Shown one piece after another: positions 56,023 to 63,708 of a stretch of 64,000 bases of DNA (positions within the stretch are counted from its first letter, which is position 1; each line of letters starts with the position of its first letter). Both the position numbers and the translations under genes were made by a program. Location of the stretch: assembly GCA_001004905.1 (NCBI GenBank), contig LCRY01000002.1, forward strand, positions 378,129 to 442,128. The letters run 5' to 3'. A model generated the notes under the pieces. That model was not told the origin of the DNA. It searched no databases and was given only the letters and a program-made list of their open reading frames with translations. This DNA comes from Parcubacteria group bacterium GW2011_GWA1_56_13 (GTDB lineage: Bacteria > Patescibacteriota > Minisyncoccia > Phycocordibacterales > Phycocordibacteraceae).

Positions 56023-56131
56023 ACTGACGGCTGATTATAGCAAACGATCCCGCGCCGATGGATTCGACCGCATAAGAAACTGTTTGGAACGTTATTTGAC
56101 ATTTCCTCGATTTCCTGATTCACTAGCTACC

Positions 56132-56146
56132 GGAGGAACTTCCTCC
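56132..56146. promoter_or_regulatory. 15-bp perfect palindrome GGAGGAAcTTCCTCC immediately upstream of the precursor-peptide RBS
   Basis: Seen directly. Possible operator or anti-SD hairpin. A TTGACA -35-like hexamer sits at ~56094. Confidence 0.35.
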
Positions 56147-56165
56147 TAATCCTGAGAGGATTGCC

Positions 56166-56306
56166 ATGAACGCGACCCCCTCTTCCGTAACGGTCCCCAA
56201 AAAAAAGGCCCCTGCGGAACAAAAACCCGCCACGCGGGTGCTGAAGCCTGGGAAGCGCCGGATCATCGGCACGACCAAGTTCGGCAAGGACGGCTGTGGT
56301 TACTAA
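56166..56306 (+). CDS. 46-aa candidate RiPP precursor peptide (MNATPSSVTVPKKKAPAEQKPATRVLKPGKRRIIGTTKFGKDGCGY)
   Basis: Absent from the ORF track (<60 aa). GAGAGGA SD 6 nt before ATG. Lys-rich leader and C-terminal GCGY core. Directly upstream of a radical-SAM/SPASM gene. Confidence 0.55.
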   Translation: MNATPSSVTVPKKKAPAEQKPATRVLKPGKRRIIGTTKFGKDGCGY

Positions 56307-56323
56307 AGTAAGGACCACCGCCA

Positions 56324-56354
56324 GCGCTCGGGGCTTGCTCCGGGCGCTTTTCTT
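56324..56354 (+). terminator. attenuator-like hairpin between precursor and maturase
   Basis: gcgctcgggg-cttg-ctccgggcgc (two G-U pairs) followed by ttttctt. Confidence 0.5.
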
Positions 56355-56383
56355 GAGCAACCCTCCAGATAAGGAGATATTCC

Positions 56384-57679
56384 ATGTGGTTACTTAGTGC
56401 ATTTACGATCTTTGAAAATCTGCCTATAGGAATATTGGCTAAGAACACATTCACCGAGTCGGTCATCCTCATGAGTCGCGAAGCAAAAGAAGAACTCGAT
56501 GCATGGCTAATGGATCCTTTCGGAACAGACCTTCCGAAATGCTTCAATGATTTTGTCCAGAACGGTTTTCTCGTTATGGACGATGATCTGAAAGAATGGC
56601 ATGACCTGCTCCTGATGAAGAGGAATAATGAGGCGCATGTCTTCACTCTTCATTTCGAGCCGACGATCCAATGCCAACTAGCCTGTTCATATTGCTTCGA
56701 AAACGGCTCCGATCGGAGTCAATCAATGAAACCGCTTGTTCTCGTGCGCTCTCTTGAGTGGTTTCGGCAATATGTTCACTTGCACCCAGAAATTGATTCG
56801 CTCAAATTGAAATTCTTCGGTGGTGAACCGCTACTTTGCAAAGAGATGGTGAGTCAAGCCCTCGAAGCGTATCAATCCTTGTGCCAGGAGATTGGTATCG
56901 ACTTTTGGGTCGAAATCACTACGAATGGCGAGCTGCTCGATGAACAAACGGCCGAATTGCTGTCCCATTACAATTGGCGTCGCGTGCAGATTACGCTCGA
57001 CGGTCCCGCCGATATTCACGACATCCGACGTGCCGGAAAAAAGGGGCGGCCTACATTCGCGAACATTATGCGGAATATCCAGATGTTAGTATCAACGGAT
57101 TACATTCCGGTGGTTGATATCCGGTTGACCTTCGATGAAGGCACGAGAGACCACCTCCCGCGCTTACTTGACGAGCTAGACGCTCTGAATGCGCATCCGC
57201 GCATTAAGCTCTCCCTCGGGTTCACGACGCCTTCGCTGTCCATTACGCCGGAACGGATGTCCGAGGAAGAACTCGCGGATACGGCGCTCGCCATATGGGC
57301 GTATGCAAAGCAGAAAGGGTTCGAAATCCCCGACGAGTTCGTCGCAGGACCTTTATGCGTTGCAACGGCGAAACATTCGGCGATCCTTCAGCCAGACGGG
57401 AATCTACAGAAATGCTTCTGCACGAGCGGACGCAAGGGGTTCAACATCTCAAATGTCGCCGTACAGCCGCTCACGTACACGAAAGATGCGCGGTTCGAGC
57501 AATGGAAGCGCACCGAGCAGTGCATTAAGGAGCGCTGCGCCTACTTACCAGTCTGCGGCGGCGGATGCACCTTTGATGCGATCGTGAAGCATGGCGAACA
57601 CGGAGGCGGCAATCGCTTCTGTCAGAAAATTCTCCTCGACCGAATGAACAGGGGGTTGCTCCGGCTCATGTATTCCTAA
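56384..57679 (+). CDS. radical SAM/SPASM-domain peptide-modifying enzyme with N-terminal RRE-like extension
   Basis: AAGGAG SD. CQLACSYC (Cx3Cx2C) radical-SAM cluster, C-terminal SPASM cysteines (CFCTSG...CIKERCAYLPVCGGGC...FC), ~95-aa N-terminal extension. ~47% GC. Confidence 0.7.
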   Translation: MWLLSAFTIFENLPIGILAKNTFTESVILMSREAKEELDAWLMDPFGTDLPKCFNDFVQNGFLVMDDDLKEWHDLLLMKRNNEAHVFTLHFEPTIQCQLACSYCFENGSDRSQSMKPLVLVRSLEWFRQYVHLHPEIDSLKLKFFGGEPLLCKEMVSQALEAYQSLCQEIGIDFWVEITTNGELLDEQTAELLSHYNWRRVQITLDGPADIHDIRRAGKKGRPTFANIMRNIQMLVSTDYIPVVDIRLTFDEGTRDHLPRLLDELDALNAHPRIKLSLGFTTPSLSITPERMSEEELADTALAIWAYAKQKGFEIPDEFVAGPLCVATAKHSAILQPDGNLQKCFCTSGRKGFNISNVAVQPLTYTKDARFEQWKRTEQCIKERCAYLPVCGGGCTFDAIVKHGEHGGGNRFCQKILLDRMNRGLLRLMYS

Positions 57680-57747
57680 ACTAGGCTTTGGATCTACGGC
57701 TGCATGCATCACATGCAGTCGTTCTTTTCTTATAGTAGAGTTCCGGT

Positions 57748-58506
57748 ATGTACGAACAACATCTCCCTGGGTACACTACCGCATTCAACGGCTTCCCTTG
57801 GTTAACTCGGGATTCGGGACATTATCATTTTCATTATGCTGCGAATAGCCTTGCGGAAAGAGAAATAGATTATATTGAAAAAACCCAGGAGAGCGCGTTC
57901 CGAAACATTCTCGCGTTTCTCCAAATTGAACCGCCGGAAAAGAAAATTCATTACTATTTCTATCCGGACGAAGACATGAAAGAAAAATTGATGGGTAGCC
58001 GATGGTTCGCTCAGTCCATCTATAATGATTTTTCCATTCATGCGCTTTATACCCAGAAAAATCGCGTGATAGGCCCGCATGAGGACGCGCACCTCCTTTC
58101 ATTGCCGCTCGGCCTTTCAATAGGATTTTTGCAGGAAGGGCTTGCCGAAAGAATGGTCGGCGCCGACTGGTTCGGACATCCGTTTATTGAAACGGTCCGG
58201 AGCGCTATAGCCGACGAGCATTTTAATGTGTCCGCCGAGCTGCTGACATCTCATGAGGCGTGGCTCGCTACGGATGATGGGTATGCGAGACAGTATTATG
58301 CGCTCGCGGCGCTATTTGTTACGTATCTTATCGATACGTGCGGGAAGCAGCTGTTTTTGAAACTGTATTCTTCGCTCAGCCGCACCGCCAATCCTGAAGA
58401 AAATGCCGCCAAGTACCAGGAAATCTTCGGAATCGTTCCGTCCGAATTATTCTCTCGCTTTATCAAGAAATACGGTCTCAAAATCACGCGGGCAACTCGA
58501 CGATGA
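57748..58506 (+). CDS. hypothetical protein with HExxH motif (candidate metallopeptidase), ~45% GC
   Basis: GPHEDAHLLSLP contains HEDAH. No other recognisable family. Confidence 0.4.
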   Translation: MYEQHLPGYTTAFNGFPWLTRDSGHYHFHYAANSLAEREIDYIEKTQESAFRNILAFLQIEPPEKKIHYYFYPDEDMKEKLMGSRWFAQSIYNDFSIHALYTQKNRVIGPHEDAHLLSLPLGLSIGFLQEGLAERMVGADWFGHPFIETVRSAIADEHFNVSAELLTSHEAWLATDDGYARQYYALAALFVTYLIDTCGKQLFLKLYSSLSRTANPEENAAKYQEIFGIVPSELFSRFIKKYGLKITRATRR

Positions 58507-60262
58507 ACGTAGAGCCCGTCCCTTGCCCTTCGGATTCGGCCCGGATGGTGCCGCCGTGCGCTTCGACGATCTGCTTCGCGATGTAGAGGCCGTAGCCGGT
58601 TGAGTGCGCATTCACTCGCTGTGAATCCCTGCCGTGGCCGCCTTCGGTGAAGAGCCGCTTCTTGTCCTCCTCGGTGATGCCGACGCCCGTGTCTTTGACG
58701 GAGAAAATGACTTTGTTCCCCGCCCCGAGCGTAGTCGAGGGGGCCTTCTTCAGGAAGATATCCACCGAACCGGACGGCGTGTAATTGACGGCGTTCTCGA
58801 CGAGGTTCCGGAATACATGATCGGCAAGCTGCCCCGCATCTGCCGTGATTGAGTACGGGCGATCCTGGCTGTCTACGGTCAAAGAAAGGGTAAGGCCCTT
58901 CCCTTCGGCTGCGGGGCGGGTTTTTTTCACGACTTCGGCAATGAGCTTCTCAAGATCGACTGCCGCGACTTGGAGCGCCAAGGTTCCCCGTTTCAGATTC
59001 GCTGCCGCAAGAATGTCGGTCACGACGCGTACGGCAGTGCGGGTTTCGAGGAGCGCATTCTCGGCGAGTGCCGTCGCGGCTCCAGGAAGCGTCCCCCCAT
59101 CGCCCTCGGCAAGGGCAGCGAATGTACTTTGGTCTTTGGCGAGGAACCCCTTCACTTCATGGCCGATGAAATGGATGAGTTTTTCTTGCCGTGCATTGCT
59201 GTCCTCGAGCTCTTCGGCGAGCTTTTGGATGCTGTGGCGCTGGGACACTTCTCGAAGCGCGCCCTGCTGGAAGAGGTAGCCAAAAGCCGCGGCGAGAAGG
59301 AGCGTTATGCCGATGAGAAAACGTCCCGTCCCTGAATCTGTAAGGAGGAATAGGGAGGAAATGATGAGCAGGATGAGATAGAGGAGTACCTGCACCCCGA
59401 AGGATTCCATCTTGAAGAGCTCCAAATTGGAGATGGCGTATACGAGAACGATGATAAAGATGGGAAGCGCAAGCAATCCGTACAAGAGGATCTCGTAGTG
59501 CGCGGTGAGCGAAGCGAAGAACGAGCTGAGCGCAAAAATCGACAAGAAAAGAAACAAGGAAGCCGTCATCGCATGGAAGGGCTTTTTCGGGATCGTGGCC
59601 TGCGGCAAGAGCATCCAGCTGTAGGTGATGAGCGTCAGTACGACGGCCTCCGCGCCGAGACGATACACCGCGAGGTATCCCTCCTGAAGCGGATTGCAGA
59701 GCGTACGAAGCGTCTCAAGCGTGAAGCCACCTTGAAAAACGAGACCGATCGGCACAAGAAGGATAGCGAGAAGGAGGAACCGGATCCAGAATGGCGGGCG
59801 GCCGCTAAACGAAAAGAGCGCCACAAAGTAGGCCGCCAGGACAAAAAAGGCGATCTCAAGAAACCCGAGCACCAGACGTACAGCGTGGAGCAGGAGCGGG
59901 TTTTCAGAAACGAGCGTTATGAGATTTCCCGAAAGCCAGAGTGAGAACGCGAGCACGAAGAGCGAGAATATCTTCTTCACTTTCCTCTCATGCGAAGAGG
60001 CGAACACAAAACCCGCAATGACGACGAGTACGGCGATGGGCACCAGGTGCGCGTAGTAAGCGAGCGCGATGAAGCCAGAACTGCCTGCGTAGGGTGTGAT
60101 CGCACACGCGCTCGGCAGTATTTTCCCCGCATAAAGGTAGACGCTAAGGACAGGCGCTGCAAGGACCGTAAGAAACAGAACAAAGAGGACGAAAAAATCC
60201 ACTGCACGATCAAACCCCAAGCGAACCTTTTCTATCCGAGCGTTCAAGGACGCGATATTCAC
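58484..60262 (-). CDS. sensor histidine kinase with ~10-TM sensing domain
   Basis: Polytopic N-terminus, HisKA (IHFIGHEVKGF), HATPase_c (NLVENAVNYT, DTGVGI, GYGLYIAKQIVEAHGG). Confidence 0.7.
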   Translation of the reverse strand: MNIASLNARIEKVRLGFDRAVDFFVLFVLFLTVLAAPVLSVYLYAGKILPSACAITPYAGSSGFIALAYYAHLVPIAVLVVIAGFVFASSHERKVKKIFSLFVLAFSLWLSGNLITLVSENPLLLHAVRLVLGFLEIAFFVLAAYFVALFSFSGRPPFWIRFLLLAILLVPIGLVFQGGFTLETLRTLCNPLQEGYLAVYRLGAEAVVLTLITYSWMLLPQATIPKKPFHAMTASLFLFLSIFALSSFFASLTAHYEILLYGLLALPIFIIVLVYAISNLELFKMESFGVQVLLYLILLIISSLFLLTDSGTGRFLIGITLLLAAAFGYLFQQGALREVSQRHSIQKLAEELEDSNARQEKLIHFIGHEVKGFLAKDQSTFAALAEGDGGTLPGAATALAENALLETRTAVRVVTDILAAANLKRGTLALQVAAVDLEKLIAEVVKKTRPAAEGKGLTLSLTVDSQDRPYSITADAGQLADHVFRNLVENAVNYTPSGSVDIFLKKAPSTTLGAGNKVIFSVKDTGVGITEEDKKRLFTEGGHGRDSQRVNAHSTGYGLYIAKQIVEAHGGTIRAESEGQGTGSTFIVELPA

Positions 60263-60268
60263 GAATAA

Positions 60269-61897
60269 TTATGTCGGGAGCTCCACGATAAAGGTCGAAC
60301 CCTTCCCTTCTCCTTCGCTTTCGGCGCGGATGGTGCCGCCGTGGGCTTCGACTATCTGTTTGGCGATGTAGAGGCCGTAGCCGGTCGAGTGCGCGTTTAT
60401 TCTCTGCGAATCCCTTCCGTGGCCGCCTTCGGTGAAGAGCCGTTTCTTGTCTTCCTCGGTGATGCCGACGCCCGTGTCTTTGACGGAGAAAATGACTTTT
60501 CCGCTCTCCTTCTTCAGGAAGATATCCACCGAACCGGAGGGGGTGTAATTGACGGCGTTGTCGATGAGGTTGCGCAATACGTGCTCGCTGAGGTTGTCTT
60601 TATCGGCGCTGACCATGTAGGGCGCGCCGGCGGGGTCAGTCATGATATTGAGAGAAAGATGCTTCGCTTCGGCCGCGGGCTTCGCCCTCTGCACAGCGAC
60701 CGCGACCAGCGTCGCGAGGTCAACCGGCTCCTTGGTGTAGGTGACCGTCCCCTTCTTCAGGTTCGACGCCTTGAGGATATTCGACACCGAATCGACGCCC
60801 ACGCGCGATTCAGCAAGCGCGTGGTCCACGAACGGCTTCATGCCGTCCGGCGGCGCGCCGAAGTCGCCCTGCGAAATGGCGGCGAAGGCGCTCATGTCCT
60901 TGGTCAAAAATCCTTTCACCTCATGCCCGATGAAGTGGATGAGCGTTTCCTGCCGCTCATTGGTCTGGGCGAGTTCTCCGGCGAGTTTCTCAATATGTTC
61001 GCGCTGCGCGATTTCTCGTTTCACACTTCGAACAAGGAAAACCCCACTTATCAAGAAGCCAACCAGGGTCACTACGGACAAAATAGTACCGGCCGTCGTC
61101 GTGCTATAGAAGAGTCGTGCGGCAATAAGCACCGCGATGCTCGCGACAAGTGCCTGGGTGGCAAACAATTTAACATTGAACGTTTTAAACCTAACGACAG
61201 TGTACGTCAGGAATGCGATAAACACCGGCATACCGAAGAGTCCGGCCTGCGCTGTATCCCAATCCTCCGTCAAGCTCCCAACAATATTCCCAGAAGAAAA
61301 CGCGATGAGGAATATGATGAGGCCGGTCGTGAAGAGTATGATCTCCTTTTTCCGCGCTGGTTGGCGGCTAATGCCCCAGAAACTCGTAAAGAGAATGAGA
61401 AAACTCAACAGTATCTCGATAGCATATGTGGACAGGAAATTCAGTGCGGGTGTCTCAGAAATAACACAGGTAGAAAGGTCAACACCAGTAAACAAATAGG
61501 ATGTCGGGAGCAGTATCGTTATCGGGAGAAGCAAAATAACGAGACCGACCTTGGAAAGAAAATCTAGGTCTTTTTTCGCGATAAACACGTAAGCGAAATA
61601 GAGGGCCGACACGTAGACGAACACTTCCGATAAGACCTGCATGCTCCAAAGGAACAAATCTATGTCCGGTCGATTGAGTGCCCAGAGGGGCAAATCAATG
61701 AGCGTCCATGTGGTGAAAAAAAAGATCGTTACAAGGAATAGCTTAACGGCAAGCGATTCGCGAGCTCGCGGGATGAGGATAAGGGCGAAAACAACCGCCG
61801 CCAATACCGCGGTAAGGTGAGAATAGTACAGAAGTGGCGGAACGTTGCTTGAAAAAATGAAATATTGAGCTGGTTCCCACGGACAGAGTAGTTCCAT
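60269..61897 (-). CDS. sensor histidine kinase, tandem paralog of 58484..60262
   Basis: Same architecture. The C-terminal ~200 codons are ~90% identical at DNA level to the neighbour. Confidence 0.7.
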   Translation of the reverse strand: MELLCPWEPAQYFIFSSNVPPLLYYSHLTAVLAAVVFALILIPRARESLAVKLFLVTIFFFTTWTLIDLPLWALNRPDIDLFLWSMQVLSEVFVYVSALYFAYVFIAKKDLDFLSKVGLVILLLPITILLPTSYLFTGVDLSTCVISETPALNFLSTYAIEILLSFLILFTSFWGISRQPARKKEIILFTTGLIIFLIAFSSGNIVGSLTEDWDTAQAGLFGMPVFIAFLTYTVVRFKTFNVKLFATQALVASIAVLIAARLFYSTTTAGTILSVVTLVGFLISGVFLVRSVKREIAQREHIEKLAGELAQTNERQETLIHFIGHEVKGFLTKDMSAFAAISQGDFGAPPDGMKPFVDHALAESRVGVDSVSNILKASNLKKGTVTYTKEPVDLATLVAVAVQRAKPAAEAKHLSLNIMTDPAGAPYMVSADKDNLSEHVLRNLIDNAVNYTPSGSVDIFLKKESGKVIFSVKDTGVGITEEDKKRLFTEGGHGRDSQRINAHSTGYGLYIAKQIVEAHGGTIRAESEGEGKGSTFIVELPT

Positions 61898-61906
61898 ATC
61901 TTTTTT

Positions 61907-61945
61907 ATAATAACACCAGAATATGCCCGCATGGGGTGTTATTAT
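61907..61945. promoter_or_regulatory. 11-bp inverted repeat ataataacacc-N17-ggtgttattat in a divergent intergenic region
   Basis: Seen directly between the HK start (61897, -) and the DHS-like gene (62017, +). Confidence 0.3.
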
Positions 61946-62016
61946 AGGGCTTGTGTATTATCGTGATTTTAGGATTCTTTTCTGTCACAAAAGTCTAACC
62001 TACGCATCTTCTATAT

Positions 62017-63117
62017 ATGGAAAAAAGTAAACTGGACAAGCTTTCGCCCGGATTAAAAAAGCTCATCGTACAGAGCAATGCCACAGCTACAGGCATCTTA
62101 AGTGATGATATTAAAAAGAGCTCCGTGCCGATTAGCAGATTTGCCGAAAGGGTACTGCTCCATTGCAACGGGGGCTCCACTATGCACGCAGCATTGTGGT
62201 TAAAAAATCATTTACATAATGGCGGGAAATTGGTAGTTACCTTGGCGGGTGCCTTGAGCTCTTTTGAGGTCGGCGTGCTGCTTGCTGAACTTATCCGGAA
62301 AAATAAGGTACATCTGATATCCGCAACCGCAGCTAACCACGAAGAGTCCTATTACCGCTATGTTGCTCATTCACACTATGCCAACATCCCGCGCTATACC
62401 GAACTAACCCCTGAACAAGAATCTGAATTGCGAGATGCCGGTTTCCGCAGGATTACTGATACATTCCTGCCCGAAGAGGAGAGCGTACGCATTATGGAAC
62501 CCCACTTAGTCAAGATGTGGCAAGATGCACACAAAAAAAATGAGCGGTACTTCCCGCATGAATATTTCCGAAGGCTATTTCAGGAAAAGATGGTAAAACC
62601 GGACCCTCATACCAACCCCAGTGACAGTTGGGTCTACGCAGCATTTGAAAAAGACATCCCGATTATTATTCCTGGGTTTGAGGATTCTACGATGGGGAAT
62701 ATATTTGCAAGCTATACATACAACGGCCTGCACAAGAATGAGAAAGATATTGTAATAGACGGTAACGTTATGAAGAGCGGTGTAGAATATTTTCATCTCA
62801 TGTACGACTGGTACATGAAAGAAAGTAAAAAAACTCCTATCGCTTTCCTACAATTGGGTGGAGGTATTGCCGCGGATTTCCCCATTTGTGTGGTACCTTC
62901 TCTGAAACACGATTTTAAACTCCACGGTACTGTCAGAGATTGGGCAGGTTTTATTGAGATCGGTTCTTCTCCGATGTCATACGGCTCCTATTCCGGTGCC
63001 GGAGGTAAAGAAAAAATAACCTGGGATAAACTCTCACCAGAAAGCTATTACCAAATTATCCAAAGCGATGTAACAGTGGCTTTCCCGTGGATCGCAGCGG
63101 TGCTTCTTGATTTCTAA
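62017..63117 (+). CDS. deoxyhypusine-synthase-like protein (polyamine aminobutyl transferase family), ~42% GC
   Basis: 366 aa with DHS-like Rossmann segments (LVVTLAGALSS, HLISATAANHEESYY, LGGGIAADF). Assignment from family resemblance only. Confidence 0.45.
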   Translation: MEKSKLDKLSPGLKKLIVQSNATATGILSDDIKKSSVPISRFAERVLLHCNGGSTMHAALWLKNHLHNGGKLVVTLAGALSSFEVGVLLAELIRKNKVHLISATAANHEESYYRYVAHSHYANIPRYTELTPEQESELRDAGFRRITDTFLPEEESVRIMEPHLVKMWQDAHKKNERYFPHEYFRRLFQEKMVKPDPHTNPSDSWVYAAFEKDIPIIIPGFEDSTMGNIFASYTYNGLHKNEKDIVIDGNVMKSGVEYFHLMYDWYMKESKKTPIAFLQLGGGIAADFPICVVPSLKHDFKLHGTVRDWAGFIEIGSSPMSYGSYSGAGGKEKITWDKLSPESYYQIIQSDVTVAFPWIAAVLLDF

Positions 63118-63133
63118 CTAAATTAATCTTCTT

Positions 63134-63310
63134 CTAGAGCGTCTCTTCGTCGACTGGCGCCTCGTCCGTCGGCATCTCATCAGCCGATGCCTCAAACGTC
63201 TCCTCCTTGTATACTTCAAAATCCTTCCGTACAACAGCACGGTCGTAGGTGAGATAGAGCGATGTTGCAATAGCTACAGCGAGGAGAATGAACAAGATTT
63301 TTGTTTTCAT
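63134..63310 (-). CDS. 58-aa signal-peptide protein with acidic tail
   Basis: MKTKILFILLAVAIATSLYLTY... Not in the ORF track (<60 aa). Start abuts the speH stop. Confidence 0.35.
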   Translation of the reverse strand: MKTKILFILLAVAIATSLYLTYDRAVVRKDFEVYKEETFEASADEMPTDEAPVDEETL

Positions 63311-63708
63311 GGAACAAGATTTTTTGTCGGGTAATGCGTACCCCGTTTGATAAAGTGTTGTTCTATGTCCTGGAGTTTGAATTTTTTCTTGAAATAATTT
63401 GTAACGAACTCCACATCAATGCCATTTTGGCACGTGTATACGTCAGCTGACAGAAATCGGCGTTTCGGAAATGTATGAATGCTTATGTGGCTTTCGGCAA
63501 TCATAACGAAACCGCTCCATCCGCCCGGGTCCTTGATATGATTGTCGGGGGCAGATATGATAAGCGGCTTCATGAGTGGGCGCATGTGGAGTGAATCACA
63601 CATCTCTATAAGCGCCGAGTACACAGCCTCCTCGTCATTCAGACGTTCCGGGTCTCCGCCGTAACCGTCCACGGTAACGTGCTCTCCAAAGTGAGCTGCC
63701 ATAGGCAT
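63307..63708 (-). CDS. speH: S-adenosylmethionine decarboxylase proenzyme (class 1b, SpeH)
   Basis: AESHISIHTFP self-processing motif. Confidence 0.75.
   Translation of the reverse strand: MPMAAHFGEHVTVDGYGGDPERLNDEEAVYSALIEMCDSLHMRPLMKPLIISAPDNHIKDPGGWSGFVMIAESHISIHTFPKRRFLSADVYTCQNGIDVEFVTNYFKKKFKLQDIEQHFIKRGTHYPTKNLVP

Follow-up and report, generated by a model that had tools for sequence, protein, structure and literature searches.

A conserved cassette of a short peptide, a radical-SAM/SPASM enzyme and a predicted zinc peptidase in Patescibacteria, very probably a new family of RiPP systems

Cassettes in which a short precursor gene lies beside a radical S-adenosylmethionine (SAM) enzyme that carries both a fused recognition element and a SPASM domain are already well known among the ribosomally synthesized and post-translationally modified peptides (RiPPs). 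Here we describe what is very probably a cassette of this kind in a stretch of 64,000 nucleotides (hereafter the window) from Parcubacteria group bacterium GW2011_GWA1_56_13 (GenBank assembly GCA_001004905.1, contig LCRY01000002.1, positions 378,129 to 442,128). It comprises genes for a peptide of 46 amino acids (aa), a radical-SAM/SPASM enzyme of 431 aa and an HExxH protein of 252 aa. Among the systems described so far, the closest is that of CteB, the thioether-forming maturase of SCIFF peptides (PDB 5wgg, 5why; TIGR03974), whose architecture of N-terminal RiPP recognition element (RRE), radical-SAM barrel and SPASM domain is like the one predicted for the window enzyme, and which acts on a short precursor encoded alongside. 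The identity between CteB and the window enzyme is only 14-16%, however, and SCIFF precursors carry six cysteines, whereas the peptide described here has one conserved Cys, two residues from a mandatory C-terminal Tyr. We know of no dedicated MA-clan peptidase in the SCIFF system.

Other described systems share part of this layout. TIGR04463, CefB, geopeptide and Clo7bot are families of radical-SAM/SPASM maturases of about 430-440 aa that likewise act on Cys-containing peptides; their precursors are Cys-rich or repetitive, unlike ours, and by its scores the window enzyme belongs to none of them. To our knowledge their chemistry is not established, so they give little mechanistic guidance. PapB, a ranthipeptide enzyme, and QhpD join the sulfur of a Cys to an Asp close by, at its beta-carbon. 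In their known motifs the Asp comes after the Cys (CxxxD), whereas the invariant Asp here lies two residues before it, and neither system requires a C-terminal Tyr as ours does. Mycofactocin also relies on a radical-SAM/SPASM enzyme and a peptidase, and keeps its core across distant lineages. Its precursor MftA ends in IDGXCGVY (PMC5264612), with a penultimate Val where the present tail, CGY, has Gly. The mycofactocin peptidase MftE is of the creatininase family, against a predicted gluzincin here, and mycofactocin hosts are Actinobacteria rather than Patescibacteria. The window peptidase, for its part, shares with the MA-clan peptidases (M9, M30, M1, PF13485) the overall fold and the HExxH site with its downstream Glu, and differs from them as a compact single domain of 252 aa.

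The novelty lies in the family itself, with its single-Cys core ending in DxCGY-COOH, its dedicated predicted gluzincin, apparently on a separate transcript, and its occurrence in Patescibacteria. No curated Pfam or NCBIfam family covers any of the three proteins, and we found no description of the cassette in the literature searched, which dealt with radical-SAM RiPPs of Patescibacteria or the candidate phyla radiation, with the C-terminal tyrosine in SPASM systems and with related maturase families. The initial annotation of this DNA, made from the sequence alone, had read it as a RiPP-like cassette whose combination of precursor and enzyme it did not recognise, and independent comparative evidence supports that reading. 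The three genes are, in window coordinates:

56166-56306, + strand: gene for the 46-aa peptide
56384-57679, + strand: gene for the 431-aa radical-SAM/SPASM enzyme
57748-58506, + strand: gene for the 252-aa HExxH protein

The distribution of the cassette was established through the enzyme and, separately, through the peptide. An alignment-based scan for the radical-SAM enzyme, taking one genome per species, gave 24 loci (a scan of genome contigs with a single radical-SAM sequence gave none). All 24 are labelled Patescibacteria, with enzymes 43-73% identical to that of the window, and in all of them a peptidase homolog comes after the radical-SAM gene. Each of the 23 loci with upstream DNA has a small open reading frame (ORF) directly upstream of the enzyme gene, ending in D-x-C-G-Y-stop. 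Using the peptide instead, a DNA pattern for GKDGCGY plus stop matched 65 places in metagenome contigs and none in viral contigs. Some 33 of the 65 are followed by the radical-SAM gene and then, contig permitting, by the peptidase gene, while about half are chance matches, with neither ORF nor enzyme. Conservation of the small ORF in syntenic homologs was one of the two tests on which the initial annotation had staked its reading, and both sets of loci, genomic and metagenomic, bear it out.

Among the metagenome loci there is a second deep clade, in which the enzyme is 30-34% and the peptidase 30-33% identical to those of the window and the peptide reads ...LQILEEGTDCGTRTGNVGKDGCGY. One further divergent cassette (L026) was reached via a distant peptidase homolog. 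The gene order peptide, hairpin, radical-SAM/SPASM enzyme, terminator, peptidase is conserved between lineages whose enzymes are about 31% identical. When all ORFs were clustered across the 24 loci, no fourth conserved gene emerged, and neither an exporter nor a response regulator was conserved with the cassette. The window has an ABC-2 transporter on the upstream side and two histidine kinases on the downstream side, and these lie outside the conserved unit.

The cassette is carried by Patescibacteria (class Paceibacteria/Parcubacteria), where every recovered locus falls. A radical-SAM protein identical to that of the window is recorded from Candidatus Kaiserbacteria. Public records of three second-clade proteins (P0326, P0327 and P0345) conflict, naming either 'Candidatus Pacearchaeota archaeon' or 'Paceibacterota'/'Parcubacteria bacterium'. 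We rejected an archaeal host for these, because genes for bacterial L7/L12 and MraZ-RsmH adjoin the cassette, marking the hosts as bacteria; the archaeal label looks like a naming mix-up.

The peptide gene lies where the initial annotation had drawn it. It encodes MNATPSSVTVPKKKAPAEQKPATRVLKPGKRRIIGTTKFGKDGCGY and has a good Shine-Dalgarno sequence, GAGAGGA, 5 nt ahead of its ATG. The same annotation had called it unannotated, which does not hold, as NCBI already lists an exact copy as 'hypothetical protein UY97_C0004G0012' of Parcubacteria group bacterium GW2011_GWB1_57_6. Two of its segments recur across the family:

56283-56303, + strand: C-terminal core G40-K-D-G-C-G-Y46, conserved in homologs, with the stop codon immediately after
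56238-56270, + strand: leader motif V25-LKPGKRRII-G35, family consensus [IV]-L-[KE]-x-G-x(3-4)-R-[FT]-G

Conservation of the core was counted over the window and the 23 loci found through the enzyme, a sample that is hence unbiased with respect to the peptide. Asp at position -5, Cys at -3, Gly at -2 and Tyr at -1 are present in 24/24 loci, so that the single-Cys ending in Cys-Gly-Tyr pointed out by the initial annotation proves to be a family trait. Lys at -6 is found in 21 of the 24 loci and Gly at -7 in 22, whereas position -4 varies (G, T, A, Q or S); the most frequent tail is GKDGCGY. For every invariant residue of the core all the synonymous codons occur, as do the three stop codons at the end of the gene. 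Such free variation indicates selection at the protein level. Both deep clades have the leader motif, at 22-28 residues from the C-terminus, in leaders that are otherwise dissimilar; by analogy with other RiPPs, it is the probable binding site for the recognition domain of the enzyme. The locus hence combines a short precursor gene beside a modifying enzyme, a variable leader and a conserved core, as expected of a RiPP cassette. Direct searches with the peptide were poorly informative: a homology search with the 46 aa matched only itself and one relative, because few words of five residues are shared, and no NCBIfam model matched at E ≤ 1.

The enzyme has three recognisable parts:

56384-56659, + strand: N-terminal domain, residues 1-92, with an RRE-like beta3-alpha3 fold (AlphaFold2)
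56672-56695, + strand: radical-SAM motif C97-x3-C101-x2-C104, invariant in 37 homologs
57284-57676, + strand: SPASM domain, residues 301-431, with eight invariant cysteines (TIGR04085)

Its sole Pfam match is PF04055 (Radical_SAM; 61.2 bits against a cutoff of 29.5), and the SPASM model TIGR04085 matches residues 301-431 with 42.5 bits (cutoff 27), which places the protein in the radical SAM superfamily and in its SPASM subgroup. Both the Cx3Cx2C motif and the C-terminal cysteines noted initially are therefore sound. In the alignment of 37 homologs the invariant SPASM cysteines are C325, C344, C346, C380, C385, C391, C395 and C413, arranged as C325-x13-G-x4-C344-x-C346 ... C380-x4-C385-x5-C391-x3-C395 ... 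C413. Compared to the standard array (Cx9-15Gx4C ... Cx2Cx5Cx3C ... C), one spacing is x4 instead of x2, and C346 is extra. An AlphaFold2 model of the enzyme (predicted local distance difference test, pLDDT, 92) gives the N-terminal domain three strands (residues 8-13, 16-21 and 27-30) and three helices (32-43, 54-59 and 68-82), a predicted recognition fold that is RRE-like. From end to end the enzyme thus reads as this domain, a radical-SAM barrel and a two-cluster SPASM domain.

Comparison with NCBIfam was made on the 25 best full-length matches, the weakest of them listed at E 4e-13. All are models of peptide maturases, except two for anaerobic sulfatase maturases. The top four are TIGR04463, CefB (NF038107), geopeptide (TIGR04280) and Clo7bot (TIGR04334), with E-values from 5e-47 to 3e-38. 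These matches run over nearly the full length, N-terminal domain included, yet reach only 131-160 bits against cutoffs of 400-600; the best of them, TIGR04463, scores 160.5 bits for a cutoff of 525. The SCIFF maturase model TIGR03974 (76.1 bits vs 425), PapB NF047865 (95.6 vs 340) and QhpD TIGR03906 (84 vs 453) also remain far below their cutoffs. Structure gave a consistent picture: in a Foldseek search of the PDB, CteB came first (E 2e-18, template modelling (TM) score 0.70), in a full-length alignment that takes in the N-terminal domain, followed by ChlB, anSME (the anaerobic sulfatase maturase), TigE, SuiB and SkfB. Sequence and profile searches of the PDB agree with Foldseek, CteB again being the best match (profile E 2.5e-21).

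A paralogous radical-SAM/SPASM gene was seen at one locus (L017, 523-1713), its product being 26% identical to the window enzyme. No informative precursor was found for it; just upstream lies an ORF (48-380) with a PEP-CTERM-like C-terminus (VPEPATLALFAISGVAAILKGKRGKK).

The third gene carries the zinc-site signature:

58078-58137, + strand: H111-E-D-A-H115 ... E130 (the latter in EGLAE)

The HExxH motif reported by the initial annotation is fully conserved, H111, E112, H115 and E130 being invariant in 26 peptidase homologs. In an AlphaFold2 model (pLDDT 95), the protein resembles most the peptidase domains of M9 collagenases, M30 lugdulysin and M1 aminopeptidases, all with probability 1.00; the matches have E-values of about 3e-5 to 1e-3, TM scores of about 0.55 and identities of 11-15%. 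On this modelled fold and its intact HExxH...E site, the protein is a predicted gluzincin-type (MA(E)) zinc metallopeptidase, a class marked by a thermolysin-like catalytic fold and a Glu as third zinc ligand some 18-25 residues downstream. It has no Pfam or NCBIfam match at E ≤ 1, Peptidase_MA_2 (PF13485) included; that model is matched, weakly, by distant homologs only. By inspection, the 252 aa contain neither a signal peptide nor a transmembrane segment. A profile search of 1.84 billion representatives gave 2554 relatives, only about 25 of them in the subgroup of the cassette, and many of the non-cassette relatives are domains of larger multidomain proteins.

Two further observations concern this protein type. 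At L025 (3742-5762), the gene for a distant homolog with 32% identity runs over the stop codon of its neighbour, a MiaB/RimO-like methylthiotransferase (UPF0004 + Radical_SAM), and the peptidase family is therefore linked there to a different radical-SAM enzyme; the GKDGCGY peptide is absent from that locus. A second, unrelated HExxH protein of about 215-226 aa, with the motif HELTHF and no Pfam match, adjoins some cassettes (L017 3940-4620; L010 4052-4696; L020 7091-7741 and 10184-11047; L015 1594-2256; L084 5673-6356). It may precede or follow the cassette, on the same strand or the opposite one. Copies from four of these loci are 59-76% identical, and the window has none.

The non-coding parts of the cassette hold several candidate signals:

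56096-56124, + strand: promoter-like site, -35 TTGACA (56096-56101), 17-nt spacer, -10-like TTCACT (56119-56124), read by eye
56132-56146, + strand: inverted repeat GGAGGAA-C-TTCCTCC in the 5' untranslated region (UTR), 34 nt before the ATG
56147-56161, + strand: second 5'-UTR hairpin AATCCTG-AGA-GGATT, containing the peptide Shine-Dalgarno GAGAGGA
56323-56354, + strand: hairpin (11 bp, 8 G-C pairs; 56323-56348) followed by TTTTCTT, from the terminator scan
57696-57732, + strand: intrinsic terminator, 11-bp hairpin (57696-57722) followed by TCTTTTCTT, between the enzyme and peptidase genes, from the terminator scan
57708-57736, + strand: promoter-like ATCACA-17-TATAGT, ending 11 nt before the peptidase ATG, from the consensus scan

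Upstream of the peptide, the site at 56096-56124 is a weak candidate promoter; its -10 matches 3 of 6 bases and the consensus scan missed it, and several relatives have TTGACA/TTTACA-like boxes 60-110 nt ahead of their peptide genes. The two 5'-UTR elements fold jointly as RNA (-14.1 kcal/mol, z = -2.4). The first of them had been described as a 15-bp perfect palindrome. The repeat is indeed present, but as 7+1+7 it is not strictly perfect, and only the closest relative shares the stem (L001 carries GGAGGA-ATGG-TCCTCC at equal distance from the ATG, with a different loop), other loci having unrelated 5'-UTR hairpins. A conserved operator at this palindrome is accordingly unsupported beyond the nearest relative. 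An Rfam scan of the non-coding parts returned no known RNA family.

Downstream of the peptide gene, the stem-loop with T-run of the initial annotation is present, and a hairpin with z < -2 is found at the same position in 22 of 24 loci (mean z -3.9). The sequences of these hairpins are unrelated, and a T-run follows in about half of them. In the window, 35 nt separate the hairpin from the start codon of the radical-SAM gene, with a good ribosome-binding site, AAGGAG, at 56371-56376; because the distance is so short, the enzyme gene would be expressed by read-through, and the hairpin is likely a leaky terminator. Between the enzyme and the peptidase, the terminator at 57696-57732 folds with -18 kcal/mol (z = -5.8), as well as which 0 of 200 shuffled sequences fold, and 23 of 23 loci have a hairpin with z < -2 in this intergenic region, followed by a T-run in most. 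Regulatory hairpins are thereby kept in position and not in sequence. A G+C-rich hairpin followed by a T-run, which defines an intrinsic terminator, is found at both sites of the window, where termination itself is a prediction. Finally, in at least 11 other loci a TATAAT-like box stands 6-12 nt ahead of the peptidase start codon, and the gap holds no ribosome-binding site. From these signals, the peptidase is apparently made from a separate, nearly leaderless transcript with its own promoter, a feature that had gone unseen in the initial annotation.

That annotation had also set the cassette apart by its composition, with 45-47% G+C in a genome of about 60%. We measured 50.5% for the cassette and 56.4% for the window, with 59.6% in the peptide gene, 51.2% in the radical-SAM gene and 47.8% in the HExxH gene. 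A low-GC island as a general property was rejected, the cassette being above its flanks in G+C in 16 of 22 loci and below them in 6. Elsewhere in the window, positions 61000-63500 have 45% G+C, less than the cassette; here lie, at 62017-63117, a gene resembling that of deoxyhypusine synthase and, at 63307-63708 (- strand), one for S-adenosylmethionine decarboxylase. The cassette is therefore not alone in making the composition of this genome uneven.

We are highly confident that the three genes form a RiPP cassette. The general model, in which the leader is bound, the tail is changed by radical chemistry and the leader is removed, is built on the shared gene order, on a peptide that divides into leader and core, and on the protein folds. 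Taken as a whole, that is, the cassette together with the following mechanism, we consider the account to be probable. The N-terminal domain of the enzyme would bind the leader motif [IV]L[KE]xG...R[FT]G, and the radical-SAM site would abstract a hydrogen atom within the invariant tail. The product would most likely be an intramolecular thioether from Cys44 to a carbon of Asp42 or Tyr46. The cytoplasmic zinc peptidase would cut off the leader, leaving a product of about 7 residues or fewer. At the level of transcription, the post-peptide hairpin would stop most transcripts, yielding more precursor mRNA than enzyme mRNA, and the peptidase would be transcribed alone, from a promoter directly behind the terminator. 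A leaky terminator after the precursor gene is the usual device by which precursors are made in excess over their enzymes. The individual steps call for separate judgement. For the peptidase, we favour leader removal with moderate confidence. Thioether chemistry specifically ranks first among the candidate reactions, yet only tentatively, a little short of an even call; it is favoured because of the whole-length affinity, in structure and in profile models, to maturases that form thioethers or act on Cys-containing peptides, and because of the invariant Asp two residues from the Cys.

Several points weigh against this account. The enzyme is only 14-19% identical to any characterised maturase, and related SPASM enzymes are known to catalyse different reactions. 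The N-terminal RRE suggested by the initial annotation appears in the modelled fold, yet no PqqD or other sequence hidden Markov model (HMM) of Pfam or NCBIfam matches residues 1-94. Known thioether peptides usually have several cysteines, where here a single one is conserved, and a Cys-Asp link does not explain why the C-terminal Tyr is so strict. The tail resembles that of MftA, whose Tyr is decarboxylated. The separate promoter of the peptidase would also fit a role in immunity or turnover, and an exporter conserved with the cassette was not found in the 24 loci. Lastly, the post-peptide hairpin of the window itself is unexceptional (-19.8 kcal/mol, z = -1.6), 19 of 200 shuffled sequences folding as well.

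Ranked second for the chemistry is a mycofactocin-like route, in which the enzyme would oxidatively decarboxylate the C-terminal Tyr46, possibly with a subsequent link to the Cys, and the peptidase would then free a very small cofactor-like or metal-binding molecule, used intracellularly. The initial annotation had proposed such a likeness, and for the peptide tail it holds: (G)K-D-G-C-G-Y-COOH parallels the I-D-G-x-C-G-V-Y-COOH of MftA (PMC5264612). The stop codon always comes straight after the Tyr, and the core stays invariant even between deep clades, which is true of the cofactor precursors PqqA and MftA but not of most antimicrobial RiPPs; a cytoplasmic peptidase and the lack of a conserved exporter would suit this route too. 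The likeness does not extend to the enzyme, which is nearest to CteB and the maturases of Cys-containing peptides. Neither MftC (TIGR03962) nor PqqE is among the 25 best full-length NCBIfam matches or among the 18 families that match the SPASM segment at E ≤ 1, and by structure the enzyme sits next to CteB, ChlB, anSME and TigE, the Foldseek match to PqqE being far weaker (E 1.6e-6). The peptide does not match the MftA model TIGR03969 at E ≤ 1. The recognition domain is fused to the enzyme, there being no separate MftB, and across the 24 loci no equivalent of MftD, MftE or MftF, no glycosyltransferase and no partner dehydrogenase is conserved around the cassette. In addition, from what is generally known of the pathway, the penultimate Gly has no beta-carbon, which makes the Val-Tyr C-C ring impossible. 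On balance we regard the mycofactocin-like route as unlikely. Just as doubtful is the wider proposal that the cassette makes a very small molecule of a new type from the Cys-Gly-Tyr end, for example a decarboxylated Tyr joined to the Cys sulfur. In these ultrasmall symbiotic bacteria such a molecule would be a cofactor for redox reactions, bind metal or mediate the interaction with their hosts.

An alternative role for the peptidase is self-protection or turnover, with the enzyme degrading the mature product or surplus precursor in the producer. A gene behind a terminator and with its own promoter is a common arrangement for immunity genes, and the peptidase gene lies behind a terminator in 23/23 loci, with a -10-like box 6-12 nt before its ATG in about half. 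The distant homolog at L025 stands away from any such peptide, beside the MiaB-like enzyme, and the domain is also found in many large multidomain proteins. Against this, wherever a locus has enough DNA the peptidase accompanies the peptide and radical-SAM genes one-to-one, the cassette has no second conserved protease, and the nearest folds of the peptidase include M1 aminopeptidases. Leader-trimming peptidases are known in the M1 family, for instance in the maturation of class III lanthipeptides. Self-protection or turnover is thus improbable, and leader removal remains our preferred role for the peptidase.

It is far less probable that the product is an extracellular signal sensed by adjacent membrane histidine kinases, an idea that comes from two tandem genes convergent to the cassette:

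58484-60262, - strand: multi-pass histidine kinase
60269-61897, - strand: multi-pass histidine kinase

Homologous kinases or fragments flank 8 of 57 other cassette loci, in varying positions, whereas no such kinase is near the remaining 49, and some of the kinase-bearing loci come from related organisms, so the counts are not independent. Neither a response regulator nor an exporter is conserved with the cassette, and the invariance of the core across lineages is unlike typical strain-specific pheromones. At 8/57 loci, the kinase linkage was judged too sparse as a basis for the account. The reading with the least support takes the small ORF for an artefact and gives the enzyme a protein substrate, as sulfatase maturases have, or a small molecule. 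It draws on weak matches to the anaerobic sulfatase maturase models (TIGR03942, 85 bits vs 349; NF010321, 52 bits vs 441) and on anSME as a good structural match for the catalytic core, and is already contradicted by the data, since every locus keeps the position, frame, C-terminus and stop of the small ORF while synonymous codons vary, neither a sulfatase gene nor any other neighbour is conserved, and anSME lacks the recognition-type N-terminal domain. The other test set by the initial annotation, whether the enzyme would match a non-peptide family, was answered in the negative by these scores.

As to the neighbours of the cassette, the two kinases of the window are paralogous and have long multi-pass N-terminal regions, and Pfam recognises only HATPase_c in them. 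The gene at 58484-60262 runs convergently into the peptidase gene and shares its last 23 nt. At L012 (2494-2631), a 46-aa fragment 65-70% identical to the kinase C-terminus comes right after the peptidase gene. In the second clade, the gene next to the peptidase at L092-L094 (e.g. L092 10806-11444) and at L029 (9131-9775) has a Cys-rich product of about 212 aa that is hydrophobic in an N-terminal segment, gives a Pfam Heavy_Cys_CGP match and a weak DUF3221 match, and is conserved in three related loci.

With genomes of about 1 Mb, the ultrasmall Patescibacteria (the candidate phyla radiation) have very little biosynthetic capacity and a largely obscure biology. Many of them nevertheless retain this cassette, and the D-x-C-G-Y end has been kept while the enzymes diverged to about 31% identity. 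Constraint of this degree on a core is not typical of ordinary bacteriocins. It is typical of cofactor precursors like PqqA and MftA, or of molecules whose receptor is fixed. The system is also minimal, with one peptide and two soluble enzymes. Whichever reaction takes place, a single-Cys micro-thioether or a tyrosine remodelling carried out by a CteB-like enzyme would add to the known radical-SAM chemistry of peptides; should the small-molecule reading be true, the cassette would be a functional counterpart of mycofactocin or pyrroloquinoline quinone (PQQ) that arose in the CteB-like branch of SPASM enzymes. The cassette would also offer a first way to approach a specialised metabolite in bacteria that are uncultivated.

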